The translations under genes and the position numbers were made by a program. From positions 1-64,000 of the IMG/VR virus record IMGVR_UViG_3300014720_002243: a DNA stretch of 64,000 bases; one strand, written 5' to 3'. Below the pieces are notes generated by a model that searched no databases, was not told where the DNA came from, and saw only the letters and a program-made list of their open reading frames with translations. This DNA comes from a virus. Lineage: Duplodnaviria > Caudoviricetes. Positions 49,811-64,000 of the stretch are shown piece after piece. The number at the start of each line of letters is the position of its first letter. The stretch's first letter is position 1.

Positions 49811-50087
49811 AATTTTTTTTATTATCTAGTAATCTTAATAACGTTCCAGCATAAATTTCTTCCATACCTTTAATGCTATCGTGATGATATTTACACAGTG
49901 TTATACCGTTATTGATATCAAATCTTAATCCTGGATATTGTGACCAAGATTTAATATGATGAGCATTTAGTTTTTTCTTTTGTAAACATCCAGGCCACTG
50001 GCATTGATGCTTATCTCTCGTATAAACCCGTTTTCTCCATTCTTTATAAATTGGATCTTTGAAATTTCTAAACATGTTCATTCTCAA
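49803..50087 (-). CDS. HNH endonuclease (start may be 50075)
   Basis: VYTRDKHQCQWPGC...AHHI...NGITLCKYHH. Confidence 0.85.
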   Translation of the reverse strand: MRMNMFRNFKDPIYKEWRKRVYTRDKHQCQWPGCLQKKKLNAHHIKSWSQYPGLRFDINNGITLCKYHHDSIKGMEEIYAGTLLRLLDNKKNYE

Positions 50088-51877: not shown

Positions 51878-52539
51878 TCTGTTGTCTCCATTAGATTAGC
51901 AATATGCTGTTGTAGTTTAACTAAATGATGTTTAGGCACTTTTGTTCCGTGTTTTATTTTTAAATAAAATTCTCTATATTCAATACCTATATTATTATCT
52001 AAAAACTCGATAATCTCTTTGCTCTGTACCCAATTTTGAAGATCACCCTTAGCGTGACTAATATCAAAACCATTATCCATATGACTTGGTTGCATAATAT
52101 TTTTCTTAGCACTATTTCTAGTATTCCAACTAGCATATAGTTCGCATTCATTCTTGTTTAAGAACTTAGAACATTGATTAGTCGAACACTGAAAATTTTT
52201 ATCAAAAAAGGGACAAGTCAAACAAGGTTTATCTGGTCTTTGATAGTTGTCTCTTTTGTAATTAAAAAGCCTGTTACGAACATGAGTCCATAAGAAATTT
52301 TCTAAAGGTCTGCTTCTGTCGTATTTTTCTAGTCCCTCTAATGCAAAAATAGCTGCTTGCTGTTTCATATCGTCAAAATCATGATATCCAAATTTAAATT
52401 TATGACCTAATCTCTTAGATATATTATCTAAAACGGTCAAAAACTCTTGTTCACTAACATTATTGGGTAAATTATTTTTGACTACTTTTTTCGGTTTCTT
52501 TTTCTTCACTATTTTCGGACGGATTTTCTTTTTGCTCAT
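51841..52539 (-). CDS. Phage sigma70-like factor with a Cys-rich insertion
   Basis: Region-2-like DDMKQQAAIFALEGLEKYD...FLWTHVRNRLFNYKRD, then CLTCPFF..C..C..C. Confidence 0.7.
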   Translation of the reverse strand: MSKKKIRPKIVKKKKPKKVVKNNLPNNVSEQEFLTVLDNISKRLGHKFKFGYHDFDDMKQQAAIFALEGLEKYDRSRPLENFLWTHVRNRLFNYKRDNYQRPDKPCLTCPFFDKNFQCSTNQCSKFLNKNECELYASWNTRNSAKKNIMQPSHMDNGFDISHAKGDLQNWVQSKEIIEFLDNNIGIEYREFYLKIKHGTKVPKHHLVKLQQHIANLMETTEWKNNHLRKEDN

Positions 52540-52654
52540 CTAATAATTCCGCTATACTTTTTCCTTCGGGTAAATTTAAATCACTTTCTACACTAGCTGC
52601 TGCTCCGCATGGATGAACTTCTAAGGTAGATTTGACAATATTAGCATCACTCAT
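52472..52654 (-). CDS. Small acidic hypothetical protein
   Basis: AGGAG RBS before MSDANIV. Confidence 0.55.
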   Translation of the reverse strand: MSDANIVKSTLEVHPCGAAASVESDLNLPEGKSIAELLDEQKENPSENSEEKETEKSSQK

Positions 52655-52742
52655 AAAAAACTCCTTGCACAAAGTTGTCAACCACATACTATTATAGTGT
52701 TAGTACACTTTTAGTCAATTTAATTTGTTAAAGGAACACCAA

Positions 52743-52973
52743 ATGGCAACATATAAGAAATGGCTTCAGACCGAACTAGACTTTATTAGATCAAATCAGG
52801 AACTATATAATGATGAACAACTTAGTGCTAAACTAAGCCAAATGACCGGCCAAAACATTACTACTGCTATGGTTCGCCGTCAGCGTAGAAAATTGGCCAT
52901 TAAGAAAAAGAGAGGTCGCCCCAGTAAAAATAAGGTTGTGGTCTCTCCGATTCAGGATAATGTTGTTTCTTGA
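52743..52973 (+). CDS. Small DNA-binding protein (Myb/HTH-like plus AT-hook)
   Basis: AAGGAA RBS; KWLQTELDFIR...LSAKL...VRRQRRKL and KKKRGRPSK. Confidence 0.65.
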   Translation: MATYKKWLQTELDFIRSNQELYNDEQLSAKLSQMTGQNITTAMVRRQRRKLAIKKKRGRPSKNKVVVSPIQDNVVS

Positions 52974-53004
52974 TCTTTTATTGTTGTGCAGCATAAAGGT
53001 CTAG

Positions 53005-53049
53005 TGGTGGGGGATTTCAGGGTAAAATTTGGAATCCCTCATCTTTTTT
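53005..53049 (+). terminator. Terminator-like hairpin
   Basis: GGTGGGGGATTTCA...TGGAATCCCTCATC followed by T6. Confidence 0.55.
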
Positions 53050-53067
53050 AACCAGGAGATTAATCTA

Positions 53068-53355
53068 ATGAAATTGTTTAGTTGTATGTTGGTTTTGTTT
53101 ATGGTCATGATGGTGGGAAATAATAGTTATGCTTGTGAGTGGGTAAGGGCTCGACCAATTCAGACAGTAGTGGTATATGCTTATCCACCTTCGGTATACA
53201 ATGTTTATCCCGTTTATATTGCTCCTCAGCCTCAACCAGTAGTAACCTATGAAACGGTTTTGGTTCCTGTGGTGCAGCAAGGGGTACAGTGGGTTTGGCC
53301 AAATTATTATCAGGTACAGCCGGTATATATTAGACCAACATTAATAAGGTACTAA
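53068..53355 (+). CDS. Secreted Pro/Tyr/Val-rich small protein
   Basis: AGGAG RBS; signal-peptide-like N-terminus; low-complexity YPPSVYNVYPVYIAPQPQP. Confidence 0.6.
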   Translation: MKLFSCMLVLFMVMMVGNNSYACEWVRARPIQTVVVYAYPPSVYNVYPVYIAPQPQPVVTYETVLVPVVQQGVQWVWPNYYQVQPVYIRPTLIRY

Positions 53356-53381
53356 GCTAATTATATAGTATAGGCCACAAA

Positions 53382-53412
53382 GAGAGACAGGCAGAGATGC
53401 TTGTCTTTTTTT
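53382..53412 (+). terminator. Rho-independent terminator
   Basis: GAGACAGGCA-GAGA-TGCTTGTCTT followed by a T run. Confidence 0.7.
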
Positions 53413-53451
53413 GTATAATTTGGTATAATAATGTATATAAAGGAGAATTTT

Positions 53452-55278
53452 ATGTGTGGTATAATGGGTTACAAGGGAAACAAGAAGTGTTTGCCAATTA
53501 TATTAGATGGACTTAAACGACTAGAATATAGAGGATATGATAGTGCTGGAGTATCCTATATAATAGGCAATAAATTAATTACATTTAAAAGTCCTGGATG
53601 TGTTAATGAGTTAATTAATAATTGGATAGATTTTGATATGCCAAGTAATATTGGTATAGGTCATACTAGATGGGCAACACACGGTCAACCATCTCAAAGA
53701 AACGCTCACCCTCATACTACTAGCGACGATAGATTAAGCATCGTTCATAATGGAATTGTAGAAAATTATGTAGCATTACAAAAAGAATTAATAGATAAAG
53801 GTTACTTATTTGTTTCGGAAACAGATACAGAAGTTTTATTATATTTAATATACGATTATTTAGTAATAGAAAATTTACCATTATTTGAAGCTGTTAAATT
53901 TGCTCTAGAAAGAGTTGTTGGGGCGTATGCTATATGCGTCATAGATAAAAAAGATCCAGAAAATATAGTAGCTGCTAGAAAAGGAAGTCCTCTTGTTGTA
54001 GGTTTGGGCGAACCGGGAGAATTTTATGTTGCTAGTGATCAATTAGCTTTAGTAGGATATACAAATGATATTGTTGTATTAGAAGATAATGTTGTTGTGG
54101 AACTAAAAGATCAATTAACTTGCTATGATATGAGAAATAAAAAAATATCTCAATGCAATATATCTAAACTATATAATCAAATATACAATATTGAAAAAAA
54201 TGGATACGATCATTTTATGATCAAAGAAATATATGAACAGCCTAGAGTTGTAGCAGACTGTTTGAGTGGTAGGATTGATGGTTATAGGATAAAACTTGGA
54301 GGTTTATTTGGTTATGAAAATATCTTAAGTACTGCGGATCATATTACTATACTTGCATGTGGATCATCGTGGCACGCTGGATTAATAGCAAAATATTATT
54401 TTGAAGAATTTTGTGGAATAAAAACTAGCGTGGAATATGCTAGTGAATTTAGATATAGAAAACCAGTTATTAATGAAGACGATATTGTAATAGCTATATC
54501 ACAAAGTGGCGAAACAGCTGATACTATTAATGCTGCAAATTTAGCAAAATCCAAAGGGGCTATTGTTATTGGAGTTTGTAATGTAGCAGATTCTTCGTTA
54601 GTTAGATTAACAGAGTGCGGAGTATATTGTAGGGCTGGCGCAGAGATAGGGGTGGCCAGTACAAAAGCTTTTATGTCTCAAGTAATAGTATTATTATTAA
54701 TAGCACTATGGATAGAACAATATAGAGACTCTAGAATGTTAATAGATTATAGACAAGCTATTATAGATGATTTAAAAAAATTACCAATAGTATTAGAAGA
54801 AGTATTAAAGTTAAATAAAAATATAAGAAAACTTGGTGCTAAGTTCCATAAATCTAAAAATTGCATTTATCTAGGAAGAGAATATAATTTTCCTGTAGCC
54901 TTAGAAGGAGCATTAAAATTAAAAGAAATATCTTATATTCATGCTGAAGGATATCCTGCTGCCGAAATGAAACATGGTCCTATAGCTTTAATAGATAAAA
55001 ATATGCCGGTAATTGTTGTGTCTAACAACAAAAAACAATATAGTAAAATTGCAAATAATATCAAAGAGATACAAGCTAGGAGCGGAGAAGTTATAGAGGT
55101 TTATGCAGAAGATAGGTTTTCTGGTGATTATGGATTAAAAGTTCCTAGTGTGGTTGATCCCGTAAGTCCTTTGATATCTAGTATGGTATTACAATTATTT
55201 GCATATTATTGTGCTATTTTGAGTGGTCACGATGTTGATAAACCAAGAAACCTAGCCAAAAGCGTAACTGTAGAATAA
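53452..55278 (+). CDS. glmS: Glutamine-fructose-6-phosphate aminotransferase (isomerizing)
   Basis: MCGI start (catalytic Cys1), LEYRGYDSAG, GHTRWATHG, HNGIVEN, SQSGETAD, PRNLAKSVTVE. Confidence 0.97.
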   Translation: MCGIMGYKGNKKCLPIILDGLKRLEYRGYDSAGVSYIIGNKLITFKSPGCVNELINNWIDFDMPSNIGIGHTRWATHGQPSQRNAHPHTTSDDRLSIVHNGIVENYVALQKELIDKGYLFVSETDTEVLLYLIYDYLVIENLPLFEAVKFALERVVGAYAICVIDKKDPENIVAARKGSPLVVGLGEPGEFYVASDQLALVGYTNDIVVLEDNVVVELKDQLTCYDMRNKKISQCNISKLYNQIYNIEKNGYDHFMIKEIYEQPRVVADCLSGRIDGYRIKLGGLFGYENILSTADHITILACGSSWHAGLIAKYYFEEFCGIKTSVEYASEFRYRKPVINEDDIVIAISQSGETADTINAANLAKSKGAIVIGVCNVADSSLVRLTECGVYCRAGAEIGVASTKAFMSQVIVLLLIALWIEQYRDSRMLIDYRQAIIDDLKKLPIVLEEVLKLNKNIRKLGAKFHKSKNCIYLGREYNFPVALEGALKLKEISYIHAEGYPAAEMKHGPIALIDKNMPVIVVSNNKKQYSKIANNIKEIQARSGEVIEVYAEDRFSGDYGLKVPSVVDPVSPLISSMVLQLFAYYCAILSGHDVDKPRNLAKSVTVE

Positions 55279-55718
55279 TGTTTTATATTAGACCCATATC
55301 TATATATGATAATTTAAATGAATATATGAGGTGTGTGGAGGATCTAAACGGTTCTGATGTTAGTGTCAGCAATGAACAAGAAATGAGGGGATGGTTATTT
55401 TCTAGACCAGACAATATTGTAACATATGTATGTGTTTATAATAGAAAAATAGTTGCTACGGCTACTTGTTTGTTTGAAAGAAAACTAAGATACAATCAGT
55501 TGTGCTGTCATTTGGAGGATGTGGGAGTTGTGCAAGAGTGTCGTTCTATGGGTTTGGGGCGATTGATAGTTAACTATTGTGTGGGCGAAGCAAAATTTAG
55601 AGGATGCTATAAGATAAAGCTTCATTGTAGCGATAAGCTTCTTGGTTTCTATGAGCATCTAGGTTTTGTAAAAATTAATAATGGAATGGAAAAAAATATC
55701 AATAAACTGGCCAATTAG
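55278..55718 (+). CDS. GNA1-type glucosamine-6-phosphate N-acetyltransferase (GNAT)
   Basis: HLEDVGV..RSMGLG...GCYKIKLHC...FYEHLGF; coupled to glmS. Confidence 0.8.
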   Translation: MFYIRPISIYDNLNEYMRCVEDLNGSDVSVSNEQEMRGWLFSRPDNIVTYVCVYNRKIVATATCLFERKLRYNQLCCHLEDVGVVQECRSMGLGRLIVNYCVGEAKFRGCYKIKLHCSDKLLGFYEHLGFVKINNGMEKNINKLAN

Positions 55719-55801
55719 TTTATGGTGTCCCTACTTCTTTTAGACCACCCCCGGTTTTTATGGAAAAAAGTGGCAGTCCTTTAGAAAATGAAAAAACCCC
55801 C

Positions 55802-55879
55802 TAAACCTTTACTCTGCAAGGGTTTACGGCGAATATTTTGGGCCACATTTTTCATAAAGCCTTGAAAATCATAGACTTA
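55802..55879. repeat. Paired-palindrome element 1
   Basis: TAAACCTTT-N7-AAGGGTTTA and, 53 bp later, TAAAGCCTT-N7-ATAGACTTA. Confidence 0.9.
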
Positions 55880-55998
55880 CGTGCATTTTACAAAAATGGC
55901 AGGACAAAATGGCAGAAACTGCAAGAATGACATAGTGCCATAATGACAGAATCATCAAAAACGCCGAGAAAATCGTGGAAAAAATATTTTTCGGCATT

Positions 55999-56014
55999 TG
56001 GCACGGTATCTGCA
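55999..56014 (+). promoter_or_regulatory. sigma54-like -24/-12 motif
   Basis: TGGCACG-GTAT-CTGCA about 30 nt upstream of ATG 56045. Confidence 0.55.
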
Positions 56015-56044
56015 CTATATATTGGTAGAAAAGAAAGGAAAAGA

Positions 56045-56233
56045 ATGAATAAGTACAGCAAAAAGGTGCTTTCCAAGCGTTTGAACAAGTTGGGCTATAC
56101 TTTGGGTCGTGATATTTTCGGATGGGTCGTGATTTCCACCCATACAGGCTTCGAATGGAAGTTCCCCACCCTAGGAGGGGTGAATAGGTTTATTCTTGAC
56201 ACGGAAAGCCTCAAGGCCATGAATACCCCATAG
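56045..56233 (+). CDS. Small early protein, paralog of 56840..57049
   Basis: AAAGGAA RBS; shares K.L.K.GYTL.R...W.F..L.GV.RF..D with the paralog. Confidence 0.7.
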   Translation: MNKYSKKVLSKRLNKLGYTLGRDIFGWVVISTHTGFEWKFPTLGGVNRFILDTESLKAMNTP

Positions 56234-56240
56234 AGGGGGG

Positions 56241-56269
56241 TTGACAAGCGATTTTTTCTAGTGTATAAT
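56241..56269 (+). promoter_or_regulatory. sigma70 promoter
   Basis: TTGACA-17-TATAAT. Confidence 0.85.
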
Positions 56270-56299
56270 CATTTCATCATCACCAAGAGGAAAAAAGAC

Positions 56300-56623
56300 A
56301 TGACCAAGTTCGCAATCATCGAAAACGCCAAGCGTCAAGCCCGTATGTGCTTTCTCGGTATCGCTATCCCGTGCGACAAGACCACTGTTGATGGTAGCGT
56401 GATTCGTTCCGAAAAGGTTTTGAAGTTCAACCGTAAGGCTCTGCGTCGAGCCAATAGCGTCAAGATGGAAAAGGTTGATCCCCGCGTTGTGGGGGGTGAT
56501 GATAGCATGATCGTAAAGGTTGGAAAGCCCGGCTCCCCCGAAAGGGTGGAAGCACTCGCTGCTCAATACTCTGCCGTAATGGCAGAAGGGATCGAAGTAT
56601 CCCCCTTTGGGTGGGATGGCTGA
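56300..56623 (+). CDS. Hypothetical early protein
   Basis: GAGG RBS; own promoter; MTKFAIIENAKRQ... Confidence 0.7.
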   Translation: MTKFAIIENAKRQARMCFLGIAIPCDKTTVDGSVIRSEKVLKFNRKALRRANSVKMEKVDPRVVGGDDSMIVKVGKPGSPERVEALAAQYSAVMAEGIEVSPFGWDG

Positions 56624-56625
56624 CG

Positions 56626-56703
56626 TAACCCGTTGAGACGCAAGGCTTTGCGTTCGACGGGGCCACAGAGGCTTGACGTAAACCCTTGCAAATCAACAAC
56701 ATA
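56626..56703. repeat. Paired-palindrome element 2
   Basis: TAACCCGTT-N7-AAGGCTTTG / TAAACCCTT-N7-AACAACATA, 53-bp offset. Confidence 0.85.
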
Positions 56704-56718
56704 GCAAATACCATGCCA
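56703..56718 (-). promoter_or_regulatory. sigma54-like -24/-12 motif (antisense)
   Basis: Minus strand TGGCATG-GTAT-TTGCT. Confidence 0.55.
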
Positions 56719-56782
56719 AACAAAGGTAAAACCGTAAAAAGTTTTGTCAAAATCTCTTGACAGAAAAATCCAAAGATTTTGC

Positions 56783-56811
56783 TTGCAACCTAAAGAATCG
56801 CCCTGTATAAT
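56783..56811 (+). promoter_or_regulatory. sigma70 promoter
   Basis: TTGCAA-17-TATAAT followed by GTCGATA. Confidence 0.8.
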
Positions 56812-56839
56812 GTCGATATAAGAAAAGAGGAGAAAAAAG

Positions 56840-57049
56840 ATGAACAGCAAAACGATTGCCAAAGAGTTGCAGAAGATGGGTTACACACTCAAGCGGACTT
56901 CCGATGTTGAAGCCCGATGGATGGTTCGCTCGGATGTGCTAACCTACCATTGGAACTTCAAGGACTTGAAGGGTGTGGAGCGTTTCATGGTTGACGAACG
57001 GGCTATGTATCGGTATGCTAAGGCGAACGGTGCTACGCTTCGCAAGTAG
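56840..57049 (+). CDS. Small early protein, paralog of 56045..56233
   Basis: GAGGAG RBS; paralogy. Confidence 0.75.
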   Translation: MNSKTIAKELQKMGYTLKRTSDVEARWMVRSDVLTYHWNFKDLKGVERFMVDERAMYRYAKANGATLRK

Positions 57050-57061
57050 AAAGGAAATGAT

Positions 57062-57244
57062 ATGATGTTTTCGGATTGCTGTGGTGTTCAGATTGTAGAC
57101 GATATTGCAGGATTGGAACTCTGCCCGCGTTGCTGGGAGCATTGTGAGGTTATCGTCGAAGATGAGGATATGGCCGCTGCTCGGGAAGAGATTGAAAATA
57201 TGTCCGTCGAAGAGTATAATAGCCTTCCTCTCTATAAGGGCTGA
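57062..57244 (+). CDS. Small Zn-ribbon protein
   Basis: SDCCG...CPRCWEHC; AAGGA RBS. Confidence 0.65.
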   Translation: MMFSDCCGVQIVDDIAGLELCPRCWEHCEVIVEDEDMAAAREEIENMSVEEYNSLPLYKG

Positions 57245-57247
57245 ACA

Positions 57248-57457
57248 ATGCAAGTTTTCGATCATAGACTTTTGGTTGCTGTGCCTGCGAATAAGTGGAT
57301 CGGGGAATGGATTCAGCGTGACCCATCCCCCATATACAGAGGTACACTTGCTGCACAGTTGCGACTGATCCGCAAGAGGCACGGTACCCCCTATGCGAGG
57401 GAGTGGCGTGACCATATGGTGTGGCTTGGCAGTTATCCTCCCAAATATAAGTACTAA
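57248..57457 (+). CDS. Hypothetical early protein
   Basis: Tightly packed plus-strand ORF ending just before element 3. Confidence 0.55.
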   Translation: MQVFDHRLLVAVPANKWIGEWIQRDPSPIYRGTLAAQLRLIRKRHGTPYAREWRDHMVWLGSYPPKYKY

Positions 57458-57460
57458 TCC

Positions 57461-57538
57461 TAAATCGTTGGCCCATAAGGCTTTGCGACTTGGGCCCTCG
57501 GCCTAGGTTGACGCAAACCCTTGGGAAACAATACGTTG
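57461..57538. repeat. Paired-palindrome element 3
   Basis: TAAATCGTT-N7-AAGGCTTTG / CAAACCCTT-N7-AATACGTTG, 53-bp offset. Confidence 0.85.
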
Positions 57539-57592
57539 CAGATTTTTTCGATTTGGCACGAAATTATATTTGAAATTTTCCAAAGATTTCGC

Positions 57593-57620
57593 TTGCAATC
57601 TAAAGAAAACTCTGTATAAT
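57593..57620 (+). promoter_or_regulatory. sigma70 promoter
   Basis: TTGCAA-16-TATAAT followed by GTCGATA. Confidence 0.75.
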
Positions 57621-57659
57621 GTCGATATAAGAAGTAGGAAAGAAAAAGGAGACGATAAA

Positions 57660-57899
57660 ATGGTTACCTTGAGCACCCGAGACGAGTTGGTTGAGTTCCT
57701 GTATGGTGCGGACAGCACTTCTCCCGATACGTTGGTTGGGGTTGCCACCATCGGTGGAGAGTTGCTGGCTGAGGCTCTTACCCACGATCTGCGGGATGGC
57801 ACCTTCCATATTGGGGATTTCTTCCCGATGGGTGATGAGGGTGAGGGAATCACCGTTGACCGTGATGGACGCATTCTGGAAGACTATCTGTACTATTGA
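57660..57899 (+). CDS. Acidic hypothetical early protein
   Basis: AAGGAG RBS; MVTLSTRDELVEFL... Confidence 0.7.
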   Translation: MVTLSTRDELVEFLYGADSTSPDTLVGVATIGGELLAEALTHDLRDGTFHIGDFFPMGDEGEGITVDRDGRILEDYLYY

Positions 57900-57905
57900 T
57901 CAGTA

Positions 57906-57933
57906 TTGACAGCATAAAAATCTGTAGTATAAT
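57906..57933 (+). promoter_or_regulatory. sigma70 promoter
   Basis: TTGACA-16-TATAAT. Confidence 0.75.
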
Positions 57934-57956
57934 AGTAGAAAAGAAAGAGAGAAAAG

Positions 57957-58181
57957 ATGCAATCCTCGATGAGCGTAAACGGTTTTCTTGCTAGCCTTCC
58001 TAGGATCGTACAGAAGAAGGTGTGGAAGGTTACGGATAAGGATGGTACGGTTGTTCAGTATGTTGGTGCTACGGATAACCGAAAGACTACTGCACAAAAG
58101 TATATCGACACCAAGTATCCCGATAAGGTACTGGTATTGACATTTTCACATTTCAATGGTATGATTACACTTCCTCGCTAA
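57957..58181 (+). CDS. Hypothetical early protein
   Basis: Purine-rich leader and own promoter. Confidence 0.65.
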   Translation: MQSSMSVNGFLASLPRIVQKKVWKVTDKDGTVVQYVGATDNRKTTAQKYIDTKYPDKVLVLTFSHFNGMITLPR

Positions 58182-58202
58182 CCCTTATGCAAGAAAGAAA
58201 TA

Positions 58203-58367
58203 ATGAATCCTCAAGCAATCAATGATTCTCGGCCTCTCGTGTGGACGGTTTCGGAGAATGTTCCCGATACTTACTGCCTGTATATTGATGGTATTCTTAT
58301 GCACGAAAACCTCTCGTTCGAGGAGTTTTACCCCCTGTATAAGGGGTATATTTCTAATAAGACGTAA
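58203..58367 (+). CDS. Hypothetical 54-aa protein whose stop codon is the first TAA of element 4
   Basis: MNPQAINDSRPLVW...YKGYISNKT*. Confidence 0.55.
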   Translation: MNPQAINDSRPLVWTVSENVPDTYCLYIDGILMHENLSFEEFYPLYKGYISNKT

Positions 58368-58442
58368 AACATGAAGCCACAAGGGTTTACAACACTTGTG
58401 AGTATAGAGGGACGATGTAAAGCCTTGTGCGACATAGACTTA
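58365..58442. repeat. Paired-palindrome element 4
   Basis: TAAAACATG-N7-AAGGGTTTA / TAAAGCCTT-N7-ATAGACTTA, 53-bp offset. Confidence 0.85.
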
Positions 58443-58457
58443 GGAATTGTGCTCTTT

Positions 58458-58491
58458 TGGCATGGCTTTTGCTCTAGCATACTCTGTGCCA
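58458..58491. promoter_or_regulatory. Head-to-head pair of sigma54-like motifs
   Basis: Plus strand TGGCATG-GCTT-TTGCT (58458-58473); minus strand TGGCACA-GAGT-ATGCT (58476-58491). Confidence 0.55.
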
Positions 58492-58555
58492 AACAGCGTC
58501 AAAATGAGAAAAAGTTTTGTCAAAATCTCTTGACATAAAAAATCCAAAAAATCTC

Positions 58556-58583
58556 TTGACTTTCAAGTTTTAGCCTGTATAAT
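58556..58583 (+). promoter_or_regulatory. sigma70 promoter
   Basis: TTGACT-16-TATAAT followed by GTCGATA. Confidence 0.75.
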
Positions 58584-58621
58584 GTCGATAATAGAAGAGA
58601 GAGAAAGAAAGAGAGAACTAA

Positions 58622-58876
58622 ATGCTTCGCAAGATTCCAAAGACTGAAACGATTCGCAAGAGTATCCGCCGGTATGCGTATATTGCTGGCTTTACGCTCC
58701 ATCCCCATAGCGTTGGGTCTATTCCTTCTGGTGTTCCCGGTACGTATAGTCTTTTCGATATCAAGATGGGCTACTATACTCATCGTAGTATTCCGATGGA
58801 TACGGTCGTTCGCGTTATAGTAGACGAACTGTATGCTATAAAGTATCGACTCGGCCCCTCTCTTGTGAGGGGTTGA
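58622..58876 (+). CDS. Hypothetical early protein
   Basis: Purine-rich leader and own promoter. Confidence 0.65.
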   Translation: MLRKIPKTETIRKSIRRYAYIAGFTLHPHSVGSIPSGVPGTYSLFDIKMGYYTHRSIPMDTVVRVIVDELYAIKYRLGPSLVRG

Positions 58877-58900
58877 CAAGGTAAAATAGTTTAGTATAAT
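58873..58900 (+). promoter_or_regulatory. sigma70 promoter
   Basis: TTGACA-16-TATAAT. Confidence 0.75.
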
Positions 58901-58928
58901 ACCTAAATCAAGAAAGAAAGAGATAAAA

Positions 58929-59105
58929 ATGAGTTGCCCTGACCCGCTTTATGATTACGAGGATTGGAACGACGAGGATTCGTCCGACGATGGATATGAT
59001 GCCATGAAGGATAACTATCTCACTAATGGTGGGTATGGTTACAATGAGCGTACCCGGCGTGAGGATCAAGAATGGGCCGATGAGTGCCGCCGTAATAAGT
59101 GGTGA
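58929..59105 (+). CDS. Small acidic protein (58 aa), N-terminus similar to 61513..61872
   Basis: MSCPDPLYDYEDWNDEDSSDDGYD... Confidence 0.65.
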   Translation: MSCPDPLYDYEDWNDEDSSDDGYDAMKDNYLTNGGYGYNERTRREDQEWADECRRNKW

Positions 59106-59109
59106 ATCA

Positions 59110-59187
59110 CATCTCTATGCTCGACAAGGCTTTGCATCGAGCAGCCCCGGCCACGCTTGACGTAAACCCTTGTGGCATAAGAAAAAA
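59110..59187. repeat. Paired-palindrome element 5 (degenerate outer arms)
   Basis: CATCTCTAT-N7-AAGGCTTTG / TAAACCCTT-N7-AAGAAAAAA, 53-bp offset. Confidence 0.7.
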
Positions 59188-59197
59188 GATTTTTTGC

Positions 59198-59226
59198 TTG
59201 ACAACCTAAAGACTGGCCTGTAAAAT
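59198..59226 (+). promoter_or_regulatory. sigma70 promoter
   Basis: TTGACA-17-TAAAAT followed by ACCGATA. Confidence 0.8.
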
Positions 59227-59258
59227 ACCGATATAAGAGAAAGAGAAAGGAACCCAAA

Positions 59259-59486
59259 ATGAAACTTTCCGGAATGTTGGTTGAGAATCGTCGGCCTGTT
59301 TATTCGTATTCTTGGCTTTGCGAAAAGATGGCTGATCGTTCGCGTGTTTTGCTCAAAACTGGAGACGGAAAAAACCATTTTGGTCTAATCAATGGTATCC
59401 GTCCCGAGGATGGTAGCGGTCGATGCTGGCTGGTGACTCTCACCGAAAACGGAAAGAATGAAACGGTTTTTATGAGAACCTCTTGA
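59259..59486 (+). CDS. Hypothetical early protein
   Basis: AAAGGAA RBS; own promoter. Confidence 0.7.
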   Translation: MKLSGMLVENRRPVYSYSWLCEKMADRSRVLLKTGDGKNHFGLINGIRPEDGSGRCWLVTLTENGKNETVFMRTS

Positions 59487-59538
59487 TTTTCTAAAGTGTA
59501 GACTGTAGAATACCGATAACACTAGAAAAGGAAATAGA

Positions 59539-59850
59539 ATGACTCACAGCGAAGCGATTAGCATGGTTCATGGTAAGCGTAATGCGAAGCGACGTAAGGT
59601 TGGAAATAACACCTACGCTGAAATCCTGCATGATAATAGTGTAGGGATTATGCTTCACAGCACCTATGTTGTGAAGATTCATCCGGACGATACATACACC
59701 CTGCAAACAGGGGGATGGCAAACGGTAACGACCAAGGATAGAATCAATCAATATAGTCCGGTTCGCGTGTATCAGCGAAAGTATGAGTGGTTTGTAAAGA
59801 TACACGGAAAGGAATACCCCTTTATGGAGGGGATGGTAGTGGGAGGTTGA
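59539..59850 (+). CDS. Phage hypothetical protein
   Basis: AAGGA RBS; promoter at 59483-59511; LHST..V...L.TGGWQTVTTKDRIN motif. Confidence 0.7.
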   Translation: MTHSEAISMVHGKRNAKRRKVGNNTYAEILHDNSVGIMLHSTYVVKIHPDDTYTLQTGGWQTVTTKDRINQYSPVRVYQRKYEWFVKIHGKEYPFMEGMVVGG

Positions 59851-59852
59851 CG

Positions 59853-59930
59853 TAAACCACGGTGCCGCAAGGATTTGCGGAAACTGTGGCCGGACTCATT
59901 TTTCATAAAGCCTTATCGTGTAAGGTTTTA
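59853..59930. repeat. Paired-palindrome element 6
   Basis: TAAACCACG-N7-AAGGATTTG / TAAAGCCTT-N7-AAGGTTTTA, 53-bp offset. Confidence 0.85.
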
Positions 59931-59952
59931 GGATTTTCTTCAGTTTTGGCTA

Positions 59953-59981
59953 TTGACAAGCCGATAATATCTTTGTAGAAT
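59953..59981 (+). promoter_or_regulatory. sigma70 promoter with CGATA in the spacer
   Basis: TTGACA-agccgataatatctttg-TAGAAT. Confidence 0.8.
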
Positions 59982-60001
59982 GATCCCATAAGGAGAAAAC
60001 G

Positions 60002-60295
60002 ATGCTTGCAACCAAAAGAGACATGGCCGAGCGGATCGCTGAGAAGGTTGGTGTTACTGGAGCCCAAGCCAAGGAGATTGTACAGGCAACTCTTGATGAT
60101 TTGGTGTTGACTCTTGCCAGTACGGGCAGAATCGAACTGAGGAACTTTGGTGTTTTTACGGTGAAAGTTCGGGCCGCTCGTAAGGCTAGGAATCCTCGCA
60201 GTGGTGCAACCGTTATGATTGGCGAGCGTCGTACCGTTAAGTTCAAGCCAGGAAAGGCTATGGAACAGGCTGTACAGAATCCTCTCCCCTCTTGA
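60002..60295 (+). CDS. IHF/HU-family DNA-bending protein
   Basis: TKRDMAERIAEK...GRIELRNFGVFTVKVRAARKARNPRSG...VKFKPGK. Confidence 0.93.
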   Translation: MLATKRDMAERIAEKVGVTGAQAKEIVQATLDDLVLTLASTGRIELRNFGVFTVKVRAARKARNPRSGATVMIGERRTVKFKPGKAMEQAVQNPLPS

Positions 60296-60310
60296 GGGGG
60301 AGCCTCTACA

Positions 60311-60388
60311 TAAATCCAATAGACACAAGGGTTTATGCTAGGTGGCTTCGGGAGCCAAAATCGTAAAGCCTTGTGTGCATTGAACTTA
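60311..60388. repeat. Paired-palindrome element 7
   Basis: TAAATCCAA-N7-AAGGGTTTA / TAAAGCCTT-N7-TTGAACTTA, 53-bp offset. Confidence 0.85.
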
Positions 60389-60408
60389 GATTTTTTTAAA
60401 GAATACGC

Positions 60409-60437
60409 TTGACAAATGACGATAATAGATGTAGAAT
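60409..60437 (+). promoter_or_regulatory. sigma70 promoter with CGATA in the spacer
   Basis: TTGACA-aatgacgataatagatg-TAGAAT. Confidence 0.8.
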
Positions 60438-60463
60438 GGATCAGAAACCTATTGGAGAGTAAA

Positions 60464-60655
60464 ATGGAAACCTTGTTTGTTCCTGTTCGTCATGATGTTG
60501 TTTCTTTCGCCTATAAGGGTAAGTCCTATACCGGGGAAGTTCGTAGAGTTTATGAAAAGCCCAAGGGTCATCTGATGATCGTGAAGATTGCGGAAGGTAA
60601 GTATCGCTCCTGCTATCTGGAAAACTGCGAAAACTTTTCATTCATTAATAAGTGA
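60464..60655 (+). CDS. Small beta-barrel-like hypothetical protein
   Basis: GGAG RBS; VSFAYKGKSYTGEV...KYRSCYL. Confidence 0.65.
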   Translation: METLFVPVRHDVVSFAYKGKSYTGEVRRVYEKPKGHLMIVKIAEGKYRSCYLENCENFSFINK

Positions 60656-60661
60656 GGAAAA

Positions 60662-60880
60662 ATGTCTACAATCTCTGTCTGGTTGGCTGGGGTTTCTGTA
60701 GTTTTTCTTGTAGGAGGCTTTGCCTGTTGGGCTATTGAGTCTTGTAAGAATAACTGGAGAAATAGAATCACAGTAGAGGATCTGGAAGAACTTGGTCGAT
60801 TATTTGAGCAGGAAGGCTCTTTCATTGGTTTTAATGATCGTGGGGAAAAGTTTTTAGTTGGTTTCACAAAGGATAAATAA
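60662..60880 (+). CDS. Small membrane-anchored protein
   Basis: GAGG RBS; N-terminal hydrophobic helix. Confidence 0.65.
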   Translation: MSTISVWLAGVSVVFLVGGFACWAIESCKNNWRNRITVEDLEELGRLFEQEGSFIGFNDRGEKFLVGFTKDK

Positions 60881-60894
60881 ACAAAGGAAAAAGG

Positions 60895-61002
60895 ATGTTC
60901 GGTATTAATATAGACTGGATGTGGATGGGTGTGGGATTTATTGTGGGTATTGGTTGTTCTTGGGCTGTTTGCGATCTTGTTTTTCCGATAAAGAGGCAAT
61001 AA
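60895..61002 (+). CDS. 35-aa hydrophobic peptide
   Basis: AAGGA RBS; MFGINIDWMWMGVGFIVGIGCSWAVCDLVFPIKRQ*. Confidence 0.5.
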   Translation: MFGINIDWMWMGVGFIVGIGCSWAVCDLVFPIKRQ

Positions 61003-61082
61003 TGAATCTTTACGATAAGATTATCTTGTCGAGTTCTTTTATCCTTGGCTGTGTGGTGAGCTGGATTATTAATCACTAAACA

Positions 61083-61160
61083 TAAGTCCTTGTCTAGCAA
61101 AGATTTGCGGCAAGGCTATGCGGCCACGAAAATCATAAACCGTTGCCAATAAAAGACTTA
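61083..61160. repeat. Paired-palindrome element 8
   Basis: TAAGTCCTT-N7-AAAGATTTG / TAAACCGTT-N7-AAAGACTTA, 53-bp offset. Confidence 0.9.
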
Positions 61161-61190
61161 GGCAAAATCCGATTTTTTCAAGAACCCCTC

Positions 61191-61218
61191 TTGCATTAGC
61201 CGATAATGACTGTATAAT
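61191..61218 (+). promoter_or_regulatory. sigma70 promoter with CGATA in the spacer
   Basis: TTGCAT-tagccgataatgactg-TATAAT. Confidence 0.7.
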
Positions 61219-61240
61219 CGGTGCAACACTAGGGAGAAAA

Positions 61241-61429
61241 ATGATGAGCATCTTCGAAGATACAGATACGATCAACGCTATCCTCTCCGATCTTGCGGAG
61301 CGTGAGATTCTTGAACCTATGGCTGAACCGATTGACGATCCCGACTGTCATCCTCTGGATTGGGCGGAAGTTGTTGGGGTTGCCGATGAGATTTTCGATG
61401 AAATCTACCCAGAATCAAACAGGAGTTGA
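61241..61429 (+). CDS. Small acidic protein
   Basis: GGGAG RBS; D/E-rich. Confidence 0.7.
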   Translation: MMSIFEDTDTINAILSDLAEREILEPMAEPIDDPDCHPLDWAEVVGVADEIFDEIYPESNRS

Positions 61430-61454
61430 CAAATAAAATGTTGAACGGTATACT
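61426..61454 (+). promoter_or_regulatory. sigma70 promoter
   Basis: TTGACA-17-TATACT. Confidence 0.75.
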
Positions 61455-61512
61455 CTTTATTGTCGGATATATCGGTTTGTTCTATATCGCTGTAACCTTG
61501 AAGGACTGAAAG

Positions 61513-61872
61513 ATGAGCCATCCTGACCCGTTGTATGATCCCGAAAACTCTTATGAGGATGATGATATGGACGCAAACTATGACGATTACAATGATTTCC
61601 ATGATGGCGTTGATGGTGATGATCGTACTAATGAGTATTGGCCCAACCTAACTACCGGCGGTGATGACGATGAGGATGGCTGGAATGAATTTGATAGTTG
61701 GGATGAGGATTATGATGATAGTATGGACGGCGACCATGATAGCGGTATGGCTTCTGCAGGATGGGGAACCGACGAGGATTACGGTTATTACGGGGACGAT
61801 GTAGAAGATTTTCATACAGATGAGGCTGTGGGTTTTGTAGATTACGACGAAGACGGCCCATATTACGATTGA
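61513..61872 (+). CDS. Extremely acidic Asp/Tyr-rich protein, candidate DNA mimic
   Basis: 119 aa dominated by D/E with aromatic residues; a single Arg and no Lys. Confidence 0.75.
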   Translation: MSHPDPLYDPENSYEDDDMDANYDDYNDFHDGVDGDDRTNEYWPNLTTGGDDDEDGWNEFDSWDEDYDDSMDGDHDSGMASAGWGTDEDYGYYGDDVEDFHTDEAVGFVDYDEDGPYYD

Positions 61873-61875
61873 ACC

Positions 61876-61953
61876 TAAAGCCTTATCGCACAATGGTTTG
61901 CGATTAGGCTCTCCGAGAGCATATGTCTTAAACCCTTGTGAGGCAACGCTTTA
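61876..61953. repeat. Paired-palindrome element 9
   Basis: TAAAGCCTT-N7-AATGGTTTG / TAAACCCTT-N7-AACGCTTTA, 53-bp offset. Confidence 0.9.
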
Positions 61954-62007
61954 GAAAAAATAAAGATTTGCTATTGCAAAAGCCGATTATAGTGGTAGGA
62001 TACGAGT

Positions 62008-62187
62008 ATGAGCAAGCGAAACAGCAAAAAGACGATCACGATTAGCCTGAATCTAAAAAAGGTTTGGGAGGTTCCTCGCGGACATTGTGAACATATTAGT
62101 GGTACCGGTGTCCACGATAATAGGGCTAGGCGTGAGCGTACCCGTGGTACTGCTAACCGTAAGGCTTTTAGAGACTATGAGGACTGA
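62008..62187 (+). CDS. Small basic protein (59 aa), probably leaderless
   Basis: MSKRNSKK...GTGVHDNRARRERTR...; ATG 6 nt after the TAGGAT -10 box (promoter 61974-62001). Confidence 0.6.
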   Translation: MSKRNSKKTITISLNLKKVWEVPRGHCEHISGTGVHDNRARRERTRGTANRKAFRDYED

Positions 62188-62272
62188 GTCTCTGCTAATC
62201 CTAAAGGATTGACTAGAGTGGCTGTAGTCAGCGAGAATTTCTTGTATAGACATTATCAACATAAAGGATAAA

Positions 62273-62443
62273 ATGCTAAAATCTTCTAATGTTTTGATTT
62301 CTTTGTCTGAGATCGAAGTTTGTTTGATTATTGCTGGTTTGTATACTGTAAAGGGTAAACAGGCTGATGAATCTTATAAGATTTTTGTCCAACAACTAAT
62401 CGACAAGGTATCGAAGACTCAACCGGAAACATCGATTTGCTAG
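62273..62443 (+). CDS. Hypothetical 56-aa protein
   Basis: AAGGA RBS; MLKSSNVLISLSEIEV... Confidence 0.55.
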   Translation: MLKSSNVLISLSEIEVCLIIAGLYTVKGKQADESYKIFVQQLIDKVSKTQPETSIC

Positions 62444-62478
62444 TTGACAAACTCTTACAAGAAAGGTAGAATGTTGCT

Positions 62479-62778
62479 ATGACTGGTATGACGCTTAAGG
62501 ATTGGATTAACGCTTATATTCCAAAAGGAAAGACTGAGGATAATATGGTAAAAGTGGTGGTTACGCAAACTGATACGTTCTGTGGTGAGCCTAACTATGG
62601 CTGGGCTAACCGATATGAGTTTATTATTCACAAACAGGCATCTCAGCGTAATGTGGTGCGTAAGGCTAAGGCTTTGGCCGGAATGACTGGTGTTAAGGCC
62701 GATACCTACGATTATGGTGATGGTTATACTGTAAAGCCTCGTGGATATAATCAGGTTATTTTTGTGGATTTTGAATAA
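62479..62778 (+). CDS. Phage hypothetical protein (alternative start 62545)
   Basis: Promoter TTGACA-17-TAGAAT at 62444-62472; TDTFCGEPNYGW.NRY motif. Confidence 0.7.
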   Translation: MTGMTLKDWINAYIPKGKTEDNMVKVVVTQTDTFCGEPNYGWANRYEFIIHKQASQRNVVRKAKALAGMTGVKADTYDYGDGYTVKPRGYNQVIFVDFE

Positions 62779-62912
62779 TGAAACTTTTTAAAAAGAAAAA
62801 CCCATATGAAAAAGCTAGAGAAAGAATGGAGCGTGAAACAGCTAGGGCTCTTGCTCATGTTCAGAATCTAGAAAAAATGTATCAAGAAATGAAAAAGAAG
62901 CATAAGACGTAA
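62778..62912 (+). CDS. 44-aa basic protein whose stop codon is the first TAA of element 10
   Basis: TAATG coupling; MKLFKKKNPYEKARE...KKKHKT*. Confidence 0.55.
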   Translation: MKLFKKKNPYEKARERMERETARALAHVQNLEKMYQEMKKKHKT

Positions 62913-62987
62913 CCTCTTGATAATCAAGGCTTTGCAAAAAGCCTCATCAATAGAAGAACTCATAAACCATTGTCCAGAAAGGACTTA
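62910..62987. repeat. Paired-palindrome element 10
   Basis: TAACCTCTT-N7-AAGGCTTTG / TAAACCATT-N7-AAGGACTTA, 53-bp offset. Confidence 0.9.
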
Positions 62988-63018
62988 AAGATTTTTGAAA
63001 AATCACTACAGAGACCCC

Positions 63019-63047
63019 TTGACAGATACCGATAAAGATAGTAGAAT
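63019..63047 (+). promoter_or_regulatory. sigma70 promoter with CGATA in the spacer
   Basis: TTGACA-gataccgataaagatag-TAGAAT. Confidence 0.8.
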
Positions 63048-63072
63048 ACGACAACAACAGGAAAGGAAGTTT

Positions 63073-63270
63073 ATGCTCTACCGTTTTTATGATATTGTGG
63101 CCGAAAACGATGAAACCGAATACTCTTTGGATAAGGAATACACTCTAGATATTCCAGAACATGATATGTCTACCGCTGTTGAGCGGCAAGAATACCTCGG
63201 TAAGATGTTTGATGCTCTGATTGCTGCTACTGGTTGCAATATTTCCTCTTTTAGTTGCGACCCATCGTAA
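63073..63270 (+). CDS. Small acidic hypothetical protein
   Basis: AAGGAAG RBS; MLYRFYDIVAENDE... Confidence 0.65.
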   Translation: MLYRFYDIVAENDETEYSLDKEYTLDIPEHDMSTAVERQEYLGKMFDALIAATGCNISSFSCDPS

Positions 63271-63287
63271 GCAGACACCCGTTTTCA

Positions 63288-63365
63288 TAAATCCTTACCA
63301 GATAAGGGTTTGTGAACTTCGGGACCGGCATAGATATGCGTAAAGCCTTGCAACGTAAGAACTTG
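63288..63365. repeat. Paired-palindrome element 11
   Basis: TAAATCCTT-N7-AAGGGTTTG / TAAAGCCTT-N7-AAGAACTTG, 53-bp offset. Confidence 0.9.
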
Positions 63366-63454
63366 CATCAAAAAAAGATTTTTTCAAGATTTGCTCTTGC
63401 TTTTGTCGATAATAGAGGTATACTTAGAGAATACCACTCGAAGGAGATGCTAAA

Positions 63455-63718
63455 ATGAGTCCTGACGGAACCTACAACGGATATGCGAATCGTGAGACTT
63501 GGAATGTTTGTCTTTGGATTTCTAATGATGAAGGTCTGAACGAGTTTGCGGCCGTTTGCCAAAACTACAATGATTTCAAGGCTAGGCTTCGTGAAGTTGA
63601 TCCCGATTCGGCTATCGCATATGAAACGCCCGACAATGTGGCTTGGAACGATAGTGCCGTGAATCTTGCAGAAATGCAGGACTATTGGGAAGAAAACTTT
63701 TCTAAGGTTTGGGGTTGA
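63455..63718 (+). CDS. Phage hypothetical protein
   Basis: AAGGAG RBS; promoter at 63397-63424; YNGYANRETWNVCLWISNDEG motif. Confidence 0.75.
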   Translation: MSPDGTYNGYANRETWNVCLWISNDEGLNEFAAVCQNYNDFKARLREVDPDSAIAYETPDNVAWNDSAVNLAEMQDYWEENFSKVWG

Positions 63719-63743
63719 CAAACGACGATACAGAGTGTAAACT
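63715..63743 (+). promoter_or_regulatory. sigma70 promoter with CGATA in the spacer
   Basis: TTGACA-aacgacgatacagagtg-TAAACT. Confidence 0.75.
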
Positions 63744-63782
63744 GTAAGCAAGTGACGATAACAATAGAAGAAAGGGAATGAT

Positions 63783-64000
63783 ATGAGCGATTGGATTCTG
63801 ATTGGCGGTGTTTTTACGGCTGTGATGGTGTCTATTATGGCCTTTGTTGTCTATGGTGTTTATGGTGGTGTTCATGCTTCGCTGTCGAACGCGAAGAAGG
63901 GAGAGGTTTACAACTTCCTTTATGAGCAGCCACTTCATGGTGATCCTGAGAGATTTATGGCTAGAGTTCTTACTGTGAATATTATGACTGACGAAGACAT
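63783..64000 (+). CDS. Membrane-anchored hypothetical protein, 3' truncated by the window
   Basis: MSDWILIGGVFTAVMVSIMAFVVYG..., open to the window end. Confidence 0.6.
   Translation, partial: MSDWILIGGVFTAVMVSIMAFVVYGVYGGVHASLSNAKKGEVYNFLYEQPLHGDPERFMARVLTVNIMTDED

Follow-up and report, generated by a model that had tools for sequence, protein, structure and literature searches.

What is the function of a 78-bp element that recurs between the small early genes of a phage and carries two palindromes held at one distance? The question is raised by a 64,000-bp stretch of DNA, hereafter called the window, which comprises positions 1–64,000 of the IMG/VR virus record IMGVR_UViG_3300014720_002243 (Duplodnaviria; Caudoviricetes). 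The record is linear, 84,699 bp in length, and 57% complete as judged by CheckV; it is labeled G000 in comparisons with related phages. A preliminary description of the window had offered two proposals: a site-specific system for shuffling gene cassettes, or an array of binding sites on one face of the DNA. Here, we report that the elements form a longer array confined to the early region, that their phasing is retained in related phages, and that they stand in helical register with the promoters downstream. We favor, at a probability of roughly one half, a model in which the element is a rigid architectural module of duplex DNA that would be read by an IHF/HU-type protein near early promoters.

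A confined array of phased paired palindromes

Each element is built from four arms of 10 bp (arms 1–4) and two spacers of 5 bp, together with a 28-bp linker whose center is of the GGCC type. The earlier reading of two inverted repeats per element holds, but its shorter arms around 7-bp spacers are better read in a 10-5-10 arrangement, TAAASCCTTG-N5-CAAGGSTTTR, and the outer arms are degenerate. Information content amounts to ~15 bits in each of the inner arms (2 and 3), ~10 bits in the outer arms, and less than 1 bit in the spacers; the left arm of the element at 59110 is hardly recognizable. In every arm, the AA and TT columns are nearly invariant and enclose four nucleotides (N4). Each arm reads YAA-N4-TTR or its complement, the inner TT/AA steps of each palindrome are 9 bp apart, and both N4 and N5 drift between phages. 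The eleven elements of the window lie exactly where they had been placed before, and their palindromes start 53 bp apart in all 11 copies (printed in register):

55802–55879 (+): element 1, at the left edge of a G+C-rich island; no sigma-70-type promoter within 200 nt; sigma-54-type box at 55999–56013
56626–56703 (+): element 2, 2 nt past a TGA stop; promoter 56783–56811
57461–57538 (+): element 3, 3 nt past a TAA stop; promoter 57593–57620
58365–58442 (+): element 4, whose first TAA is the upstream gene's stop; promoter 58556–58583
59110–59187 (+): element 5, with a degenerate left outer arm; −35 box 10 nt past arm 4; promoter 59198–59226
59853–59930 (+): element 6, −35 box 22 nt past arm 4; promoter 59953–59981, ahead of an IHF-like gene
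60311–60388 (+): element 7, −35 box 20 nt past arm 4; promoter 60409–60437
61083–61160 (+): element 8, 3 nt past a TAA stop; weaker promoter TTGCAT...TATAAT ~30 nt downstream (by eye)
61876–61953 (+): element 9, 3 nt past a TGA stop; promoter TTGCAA...TAGGAT 20 nt downstream (by eye)
62910–62987 (+): element 10, whose TAA is the upstream gene's stop; −35 box 31 nt past arm 4; promoter 63019–63047
63288–63365 (+): element 11, promoter TTGCTT...TATACT ~31 nt downstream (by eye)

Start-to-start distances between neighboring elements of the window are 824, 835, 904, 745, 743, 458, 772, 793, 1034, and 378 bp (mean ~749), which reproduces the average of ~750 bp and the range of 378–1034 bp reported at the outset. 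The observation that most elements follow a stop codon and twice supply its TAA also stands: eight of the 11 overlap a stop codon or begin no more than 4 nt from one, the remaining gaps are 15, 17, and 83 nt, and the shared TAA codons are those at 58365 and 62910. When up to three mismatches are allowed, the consensus of the preliminary description matches the window 23 times against 0.77 expected, a number that none of 100 shuffles reached, and all matches fall within 55802–63365.

That interval had been taken as the extent of the array. It does contain eleven elements, but the array runs on to position 75290: an nhmmer profile built from the eleven detected 21 elements in the whole record, the ten further copies starting at record positions 64222, 65735, 67086, 68243, 69071, 70189, 71213, 72953, 74071, and 75213 (the last spans 75213–75290). 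The same search of the whole record detected none in positions 1–55,800, the late, minus-strand half, and none in 75,300–84,699; the motif is absent from the late region. Of the 21 elements, only that at 71213 departs from the 53-bp phasing, with 54 bp. Spacing between elements ranges from 378 to 1740 bp and tracks gene ends rather than a regular lattice. Record-wide, 13 of the 21 begin 0–4 nt past a stop codon or overlap it, and two begin 0 nt past a tRNA-Tyr gene and 6 nt past a tRNA-Arg gene. Eleven tRNA genes lie within the early array, at record positions 64518–73367 (L116 9018–17867).

The array coincides with an island of distinct composition, having a G+C content of 42.7% versus 35.0% elsewhere in the record. 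Three relatives share this contrast (45.2/34.3, 44.3/33.7, and 42.2/34.8%), and the island is therefore a lasting feature of the early module rather than something inserted recently.

Relatives were recognized through a DUF932 protein encoded at the end of the array, for which 24 homologous IMG/VR loci (71–92% identity) were found. About half of these loci carry the same kind of element, designated type I, with another N4 (TAAGTCCTTA-N5-TAAGGACTTA) and a GGGGCCGGCCC-like center. Spacing in related phages, which the preliminary description had singled out for checking, proved nearly constant: among 159 unique full-length type I elements, the phasing is 53 bp in 144, 52 bp in 12, 54 bp in 2, and 51 bp in 1. 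These statistics fit an array of same-face binding sites; the coating, protection, or translocation of DNA that had been attached to that proposal received no support.

Duplex or folded strand, promoter register, and a second element type

If the arms formed stems, partners within an element should complement each other better than arms drawn from different elements. Watson-Crick complementarity instead resembles that of shuffled partner arms, both within G000 (21 elements) and within relatives (59 elements): 0.653 versus 0.649 for arms 1:2, 0.515 versus 0.532 for arms 3:4, and 0.771 versus 0.817 for arms 2:3. In alignment A1, which contains 62 of 80 non-redundant elements, a two-hairpin model pairs 69.2% of cells, compared with 69.9% after shuffling, and 441 of 500 shuffles score at least as high. 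Predicted RNA folds beat shuffles on both strands, as expected of palindromic DNA (mean z for 90-nt segments, ~−2.3 on the + strand and ~−1.9 on the − strand, averaged over 20/21 elements), and their shapes vary from copy to copy. Mismatches of the G·U and A·C kinds amount to 13.1% versus 5.1% in arms 1:2 and 4.2% versus 23.4% in arms 3:4, a bias that makes the two palindromes favor opposite strands. Rfam gave no match up to E = 1 in positions 52000–64000. The signature of an intrinsic terminator, a G+C-rich stem followed by a T-run, was not found at the elements. Terminator-like sites between 55.5 and 64 kb number 9 against 6.9 expected, only that at 61908–61920 lies inside an element, and a T-run follows arm 4 in ~8 of 21 copies, the others having A-runs (by eye). 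Since covariation within genomes, a common fold, and a terminator signature are all lacking, we conclude that the arms appear to be matches to a sequence consensus read in duplex DNA rather than RNA or attC-like stems.

The elements are related to the promoters that follow them. On the + strand of the 8.5-kb early region, 17 promoter-like sites score at least 10/12, and each cassette has its own promoter. A sigma-70-type promoter with an AT-rich upstream tract is followed by a Shine-Dalgarno sequence and a start codon, an arrangement also seen in the promoter-early stem-loops (PeSLs) of T4-type phages (Arbiol et al. 2010, PMC2839356; Comeau et al. 2014, PMC4122927). A promoter lies within 200 nt of 129 of the 159 unique type I elements, and in 104 of these 129 the −35 box is located 9–44 nt past arm 4. 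The distances fall into classes of 9–10 (n = 2), 17–22 (n = 25), 29–35 (n = 70), and 40–44 nt (n = 7); for a second element type described below they are 12–16 (n = 15) and 21–24 nt (n = 62) among 79 scorable elements, all of these counts being descriptive because element copies are related by descent. The distance is quantized at ~10.5 bp, and its steps of 10–11 bp match one or two T or A tracts in phase. The −35 distance is thus kept in register whereas the distance to the upstream stop codon varies from overlap to 34 nt, apart from the 83-nt gap given above, and the element is therefore tied to the downstream promoter, not to the upstream stop. The rigid geometry of the element, together with the promoter register, points to selection on geometry.

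Two further features of these promoters were observed. The early promoters at 59953–59981, 60409–60437, and 63019–63047, and those of relatives L013 and L018, have a common spacer motif, TTGACA-AGCCGATAAT...-TAGAAT; AGCCGATAAT is present in phages of both element types and may be a second recognition element. Sigma-54-type −24/−12 boxes (TGGCAC-N5-TTGC, at most one mismatch) occur nine times in the window against 1.96 expected. Five of these are in the first 2.7 kb of the array, at 55999–56013 (+), 56704–56718 (−), 58458–58472 (+), 58477–58491 (−), and 56847–56861 (−). The first faces the first early gene, which is without a sigma-70-type promoter; that at 56704–56718 abuts the right end of element 2 and faces backwards, and that at 56847–56861 is inside a coding start.

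In the remaining relatives, the same places are occupied by a different element, designated type II, which consists of CTGCCAAAATGGCAG, a 14-bp core, and CTGCCAAAATGGCAG. The core is G+C-rich in most such phages, relative G003 being an exception. In four complete genomes (138–210 kb), the phasing of type II is 29 bp in 49 of 49 pairs, its strand polarity is absolute (25/0, 25/0, 15/0, and 26/0), and it is restricted to one 9–16-kb region per genome. As in type I, arms of the same element are no more complementary to each other than to those of other elements. Exact type II pairs were found in 75 IMG/VR stretches. Among genomes of 185,579 species only two contigs from metagenome-assembled genomes matched, and the pair is therefore not a host chromosomal repeat. 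It occurs in no cultured phage record, and a query with the type II module returned a single match of E = 0.3. The window itself holds seven type II-like palindromes against 1.42 expected, among them the following:

55888–55949 (+): three degenerate type II-like palindromes with three mismatches each, directly after element 1

Cassette maps reveal that types I and II occupy the same syntenic junctions in phages of near-equal gene order. The order in G000, with slashes in place of elements, is / 58 7 6 / 0 / 2 59 / 26 3 / 16.. / 4 38 / 1 /; the complete type II genome G002 repeats this string, except that its elements are of type II and fewer by two. Element positions are syntenic across phages that are 10–30% apart in protein sequence. 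These phages are distant from those in culture: a nucleotide search of the early region against 50,697 phage records gave no match, and the closest terminase, from Bacillus phages, is 23% identical. The exact inner-arm pattern of this phage was found in no IMG/VR stretch, a set from which its own record was possibly left out.

A proposed IHF-type reader weighed against other explanations

A candidate ligand is encoded within the array itself:

60002–60295 (+): IHF-beta-like gene of the HU family, 97 aa; alone in its unit, with element 6 before it and element 7 after it

The 97-aa protein matches PF00216 with an E value of 4e-28 and scores 74 and 70 bits with models of IHF alpha and beta, compared with 43 and 42 bits for HU models, all below the curated cut-offs. 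Its GRIELRNFG stretch, which includes a RIELR motif, aligns with ERIEIRGFG of IHF beta (common RIExR), and such residues read TTR. Homologues are encoded at 16 IMG/VR loci. Type II pairs are absent from all 16, each of which has 2–13 type I elements, and at the majority of these loci elements stand on both sides of the gene. No homologue was found at the 93 loci with type II pairs (929 kb) or in the four complete type II genomes. Ten relatives are without the phage HU gene, but the type I arrays at 16 of 16 homologue loci argue for its relevance.

The arms share the core geometry of an IHF site. According to PMC1874591, such a site is defined by WATCAA with a TTR 4 bp to its 3′ side, by an A-tract, and by a central pair of AA steps at a distance of 9 bp. 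In the elements, TTR follows CAA at a distance of 4 bp: the AA and TT columns of the inner arms carry 1.9 bits each with N4 between them, while the outer arms are weaker and R is A or G. The two steps are likewise 9 bp apart, with TT at columns 17–18 and AA at columns 26–27 of A1; in the second palindrome they stand at columns 71–72 and 80–81, and both steps are intact in 49–52 of 62 rows. Near-identical IHF-like proteins occur with different N4 sequences in different phages (GGAC, GACT, and GGsT), which fits indirect read-out of the AA/TT positions only.

From these features we infer IHF-type binding and an effect on transcription. The module would present two 25-bp mirror-symmetric docking sites, YAA-N4-TTG-N5-CAA-N4-TTR, placed 53 bp or five helical turns apart around a G+C-rich core. 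It stands at the end of one early unit and ~10, 20, 31, or 42 bp upstream of the next host-type (sigma-70-like) promoter, in register with it. Host IHF, if the host encodes one, the phage's own IHF-beta-like homodimer, or both would bind and introduce two sharp in-phase bends. The folded complex could then set the geometry of upstream promoter DNA and separate neighboring strong promoters, with the module serving as activator, insulator, or roadblock. Recurrence of the module at ~1-kb intervals may also offer homology for the occasional gain or loss of cassettes, as in PeSLs.

Several observations weigh against this model. Promoters without an element are as near to consensus as those with one, so the element is not needed for promoter recognition. 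CAA/TAA is kept in all four arms, but the WAT of WATCAA, which would fall in the N5 spacer or the flank, is not conserved (<1 bit). The A-tract expected in the 5′ half of an asymmetric 34-bp site is not found; the sites here are instead mirror-symmetric, with the consensus on both halves, and differ in this from the IHF site of PMC1874591. They are also rigidly paired (21 pairs in 20 kb). Inner arms of ~15 bits, in which each genome holds closely to one N4 (GGsT here; GGAC or GACT in other phages), are more uniform than IHF would need, which makes another reader or gene conversion possible. No HU/IHF gene was found in G005, a type I relative (73% complete, ~100 kb) with 13 elements in an internal array, and none of the HU family in five further type I fragments (24–48% complete). 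The type II palindrome, at the same junctions, has no IHF-like consensus and a 29-bp phasing that is not a whole number of turns; the element family as a whole therefore cannot depend on IHF. Finally, a long-hairpin model (arms 1:4 and 2:3) on a mixed alignment paired 74.4% of cells compared with 72.8% after shuffling, and only one of 500 shuffles scored as high. This excess was traced to one change of consensus between lineages at columns 31/67 (CG in 29, UA in 21), such as any mirrored site would show, and leaves a stem improbable.

The nearest known systems appear to be PeSL cassettes, IHF-assisted promoters, and stoperator arrays. IHF assists lambda pL, Mu Pe, and sigma-54 promoters, and the elements resemble these cases in lying upstream of promoters in register and in having an IHF-like gene inside the array. 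PeSLs (PMC2839356, PMC4122927) are likewise composite repeated modules, which stretch between the stop codon of one gene and the start codon of the next and comprise a palindromic G+C-rich portion, AT-rich DNA ahead of the −35 box, a sigma-70-type early promoter, and a Shine-Dalgarno sequence. They too are concentrated among small ORFan (orphan reading frame) early genes and have no dedicated recombinase; they bound some indels, as the present elements may also do, and mini-circles are a further feature of PeSL systems. The present elements differ from PeSLs in having two conserved 25-bp palindromes at a fixed 53 bp instead of one stem-loop, in lacking covariation and a terminator signature, in a largely conserved gene order, and in belonging to an uncultured long-tailed lake phage rather than a T4-type myovirus. 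G+C-rich palindromic cores that could form a PeSL-like stem occur in relatives and are weak in this phage, where the predicted folds are stable yet vary. A literature search that did not extend to subscription journals or supplementary files found no account of paired palindromes with fixed phasing in the early region of any phage.

The strongest rival, which we consider unlikely yet worth keeping in view, is an operator array for another sequence-specific regulator that would bind as a dimer of dimers and be encoded by the phage or carried in the virion. Its role would be stoperator-like shut-off, insulation, or a block to read-through, and types I and II would represent two specificity groups. 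The evidence for duplex DNA serves this explanation equally well, as do the homogeneity of N4 within a genome and the strict polarity of type II in one region of each complete genome. Occupation of the same junctions by the two types in G000 and G002 resembles the stoperators of heteroimmune Cluster A mycobacteriophages, which number 20–30 sites per genome, oriented with transcription, are syntenic, and differ in consensus among relatives, each consensus being matched to its cognate repressor (PMC6550527, PMC9283540). A stoperator is one asymmetric site of 13 bp that is recognized by a monomeric immunity repressor and recurs across the whole genome of temperate phages (PMC6550527); here paired palindromes are confined to the 55.8–75.3-kb early region, and no repressor or integrase was found. 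The elements also lie upstream of the −35 box and not over the core promoter. No protein family was found to track the element type. Among 20 loci around the DUF932 gene no convincing type-linked reader emerged, the best family being present in 6 of 11 type I loci, and comparison of whole records G000, G005, G001, and G002 left only small ORFans and spurious antisense frames.

Other candidate factors were also considered. A GP88-like protein appeared type-linked in the comparison against G005 and was rejected when the other type I phages proved only ~69% identical. For N4-like hairpin promoters served by a virion RNA polymerase, PF00940 had no match in five records, a result that carries no weight because the control genomes were also silent. 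Searches of 20 early proteins against Pfam and PHROGs returned only DUF or unknown families (DUF932, GP88, DUF7249, and Kyano_Gp96). Just upstream of the array, at 52725–52973 (+), a small basic protein of 82 aa with a KKW...MVRRQRRK motif is kept in phages of either element type; Pfam and PHROGs gave no match for this protein, which could be a DNA-binding regulator common to both.

A role in RNA, with the transcribed palindromes and G+C-rich core closing each early unit 3′ as a terminator, an attenuator, or a hairpin for processing, comparable to the RNase III sites between T7 early genes, is improbable. Proximity to stop codons and to two tRNA genes would suit such a role, as would folds better than those of shuffled segments and the lack of canonical terminators elsewhere in the early region. 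Relatives have GGGGCCGGCCC-type cores, and the PeSL stem-loop is often polyG followed by polyC and terminates transcription (PMC2839356). These points are outweighed by the absence of compensatory changes within genomes, with outer arms Watson-Crick paired at only 52–65% of positions, by folds that differ between copies, by a mismatch bias that favors opposite strands in the two palindromes, by the scarcity of T-runs, and by register with the downstream promoter instead of the upstream stop.

Very unlikely is a third explanation, in which the repeats have no trans-acting reader and are either selfish or neutral, like miniature inverted-repeat transposable elements (MITEs) or REPINs, or are patches of homology kept uniform by gene conversion, their sole effect being homologous shuffling of cassettes. 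An N4 that is uniform within a genome and drifts between genomes would be expected, and breakpoints of gene gain and loss, which had been predicted to fall in the elements, show a modest enrichment there. An element is present at 110 of 180 junctions broken in another phage and at 136 of 270 conserved ones (odds ratio 1.55, p 0.027, the pairs not being independent); counted per junction, an element is present at 42 of 86 ever-broken and 16 of 73 never-broken ones. Junctions with an element also delimit operons and as such tolerate insertions in any case, and half of the disrupted junctions have no element. In the close pair L012/L017, one of three indels abuts an element edge exactly; in the pair L021/L023, none does. 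The clearest mobile gene of the array, a 144-aa HNH-type endonuclease gene located in different cassettes in different relatives (L012 8260; L014, L017, L025, and G001), needs no element. Syntenic positions, the invariant 53-bp and 29-bp phasing, the promoter register, and the lack of a Y1 transposase argue further against repeats without a reader. The elements are at most occasional points of homologous exchange, as described for PeSLs.

Sequencing data were also inspected for rearrangements. Eight runs with this phage, all DNA metagenomes from a lake, lagoon, or freshwater and none of them an RNA run, were available as contigs. Aligned to the array at 85% likeness, the contigs of four runs contain many joints with short sides (26–56 letters) at depths 5–15 times that of this phage; these joints are uninformative on excision or rearrangement because they derive from related phages in the same samples. 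Contig depth across the tRNA cluster (L116 16676–18009, corresponding to record positions 72176–73509) is 5–50 times that of the rest of the array in four lake metagenomes, which likewise points to related phages of higher depth in the same samples.

The suggestion that a protein coats, protects, or translocates the first-injected DNA is scarcely plausible. A regular same-face array in the early region is what it would call for, but inter-element spacing follows gene ends, and the arrays of complete relatives lie at 22.8–35.7 kb of 138 kb, at 137.5–151 kb of 159 kb, and at one record's end. Neither of the two relatives that have terminal repeats shows its array tied to a particular end; one array spans the arbitrary ends of such a record, and no link to a physical end was seen.

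The other initial proposal invoked tyrosine-recombinase core sites. AttC sites and the cores of tyrosine-recombinase sites contain two inverted pairs of boxes with short spacers and a variable center at cassette 3′ ends. In an integron, the R and L boxes pair in a folded single strand, with pairing kept by compensatory change, and the cassettes are promoterless and follow one promoter in variable order. The elements share inverted box pairs, variable center, position, and single orientation, and a central S·S mismatch between the inner arms is present in most copies. The early statement that the window encodes no recombinase was borne out, and extends to the whole record: PF00589, which was found in 14 of 14 control genomes, had no match in G000 (57% complete), in G001–G004 (100% complete), or in G005 (73% complete), a negative that reaches neither the missing part of G000 nor an enzyme of the host, and neither serine recombinases (PF00239) nor Y1 transposases (PF01797) were found in G000, G001, G002, G004, and G005. 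With no integrase, no R-box consensus, no covariation within genomes, a paired motif absent from host-type genomes, and promoter-bearing cassettes in an order conserved among 13 phage regions, an integron-like or dif-like cassette system is hardly credible, the least so of all the explanations.

Neighboring genes and implications

Two paralogous, extremely acidic small proteins encoded within the array, at 58929–59105 and 61513–61872, both start with MS.PDPLYD, have homologues in relatives, and may be DNA mimics. The low-G+C DNA to the left of the array encodes a GDP-mannose 4,6-dehydratase (50068–51060; Pfam match), and a GlmS-like amidotransferase (53431–55278) and a GNAT-like acetyltransferase (55278–55718) that were named from their translations. 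In the late half, a 1663-aa protein (1557–6548, −) with four fibronectin type III stretches and an RCC1-like beta-propeller is probably a tail fiber or receptor-binding protein.

Beyond a few model phages, little is understood of how large lytic phages organize their dozens of strong early promoters, how they avoid read-through and interference, and how they keep swapping small host-takeover genes. The element family bears on these questions because it is geometrically rigid and abundant, type I counting 159 unique copies and exact type II pairs being present in 75 IMG/VR stretches. If the IHF-type reading is true, the array would offer a homodimeric IHF that a phage itself carries, together with its natural symmetric site, as well as a portable promoter-insulator part and a marker for early regions and cassette boundaries in metagenomic phage contigs. 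More tentatively, chromatin-like double-bend modules of ~80 bp each may make every early cassette its own transcriptional and topological domain, some lineages supplying their own IHF-beta-like homodimer. The docking sequence would then have been swapped wholesale at ~20 syntenic junctions, from type I with an IHF-type reader to type II with another reader, and would define immunity-like specificity groups in apparently lytic phages. Co-evolution of a DNA reader with its many dispersed sites could be followed cleanly in phages that differ in site type at syntenic junctions.

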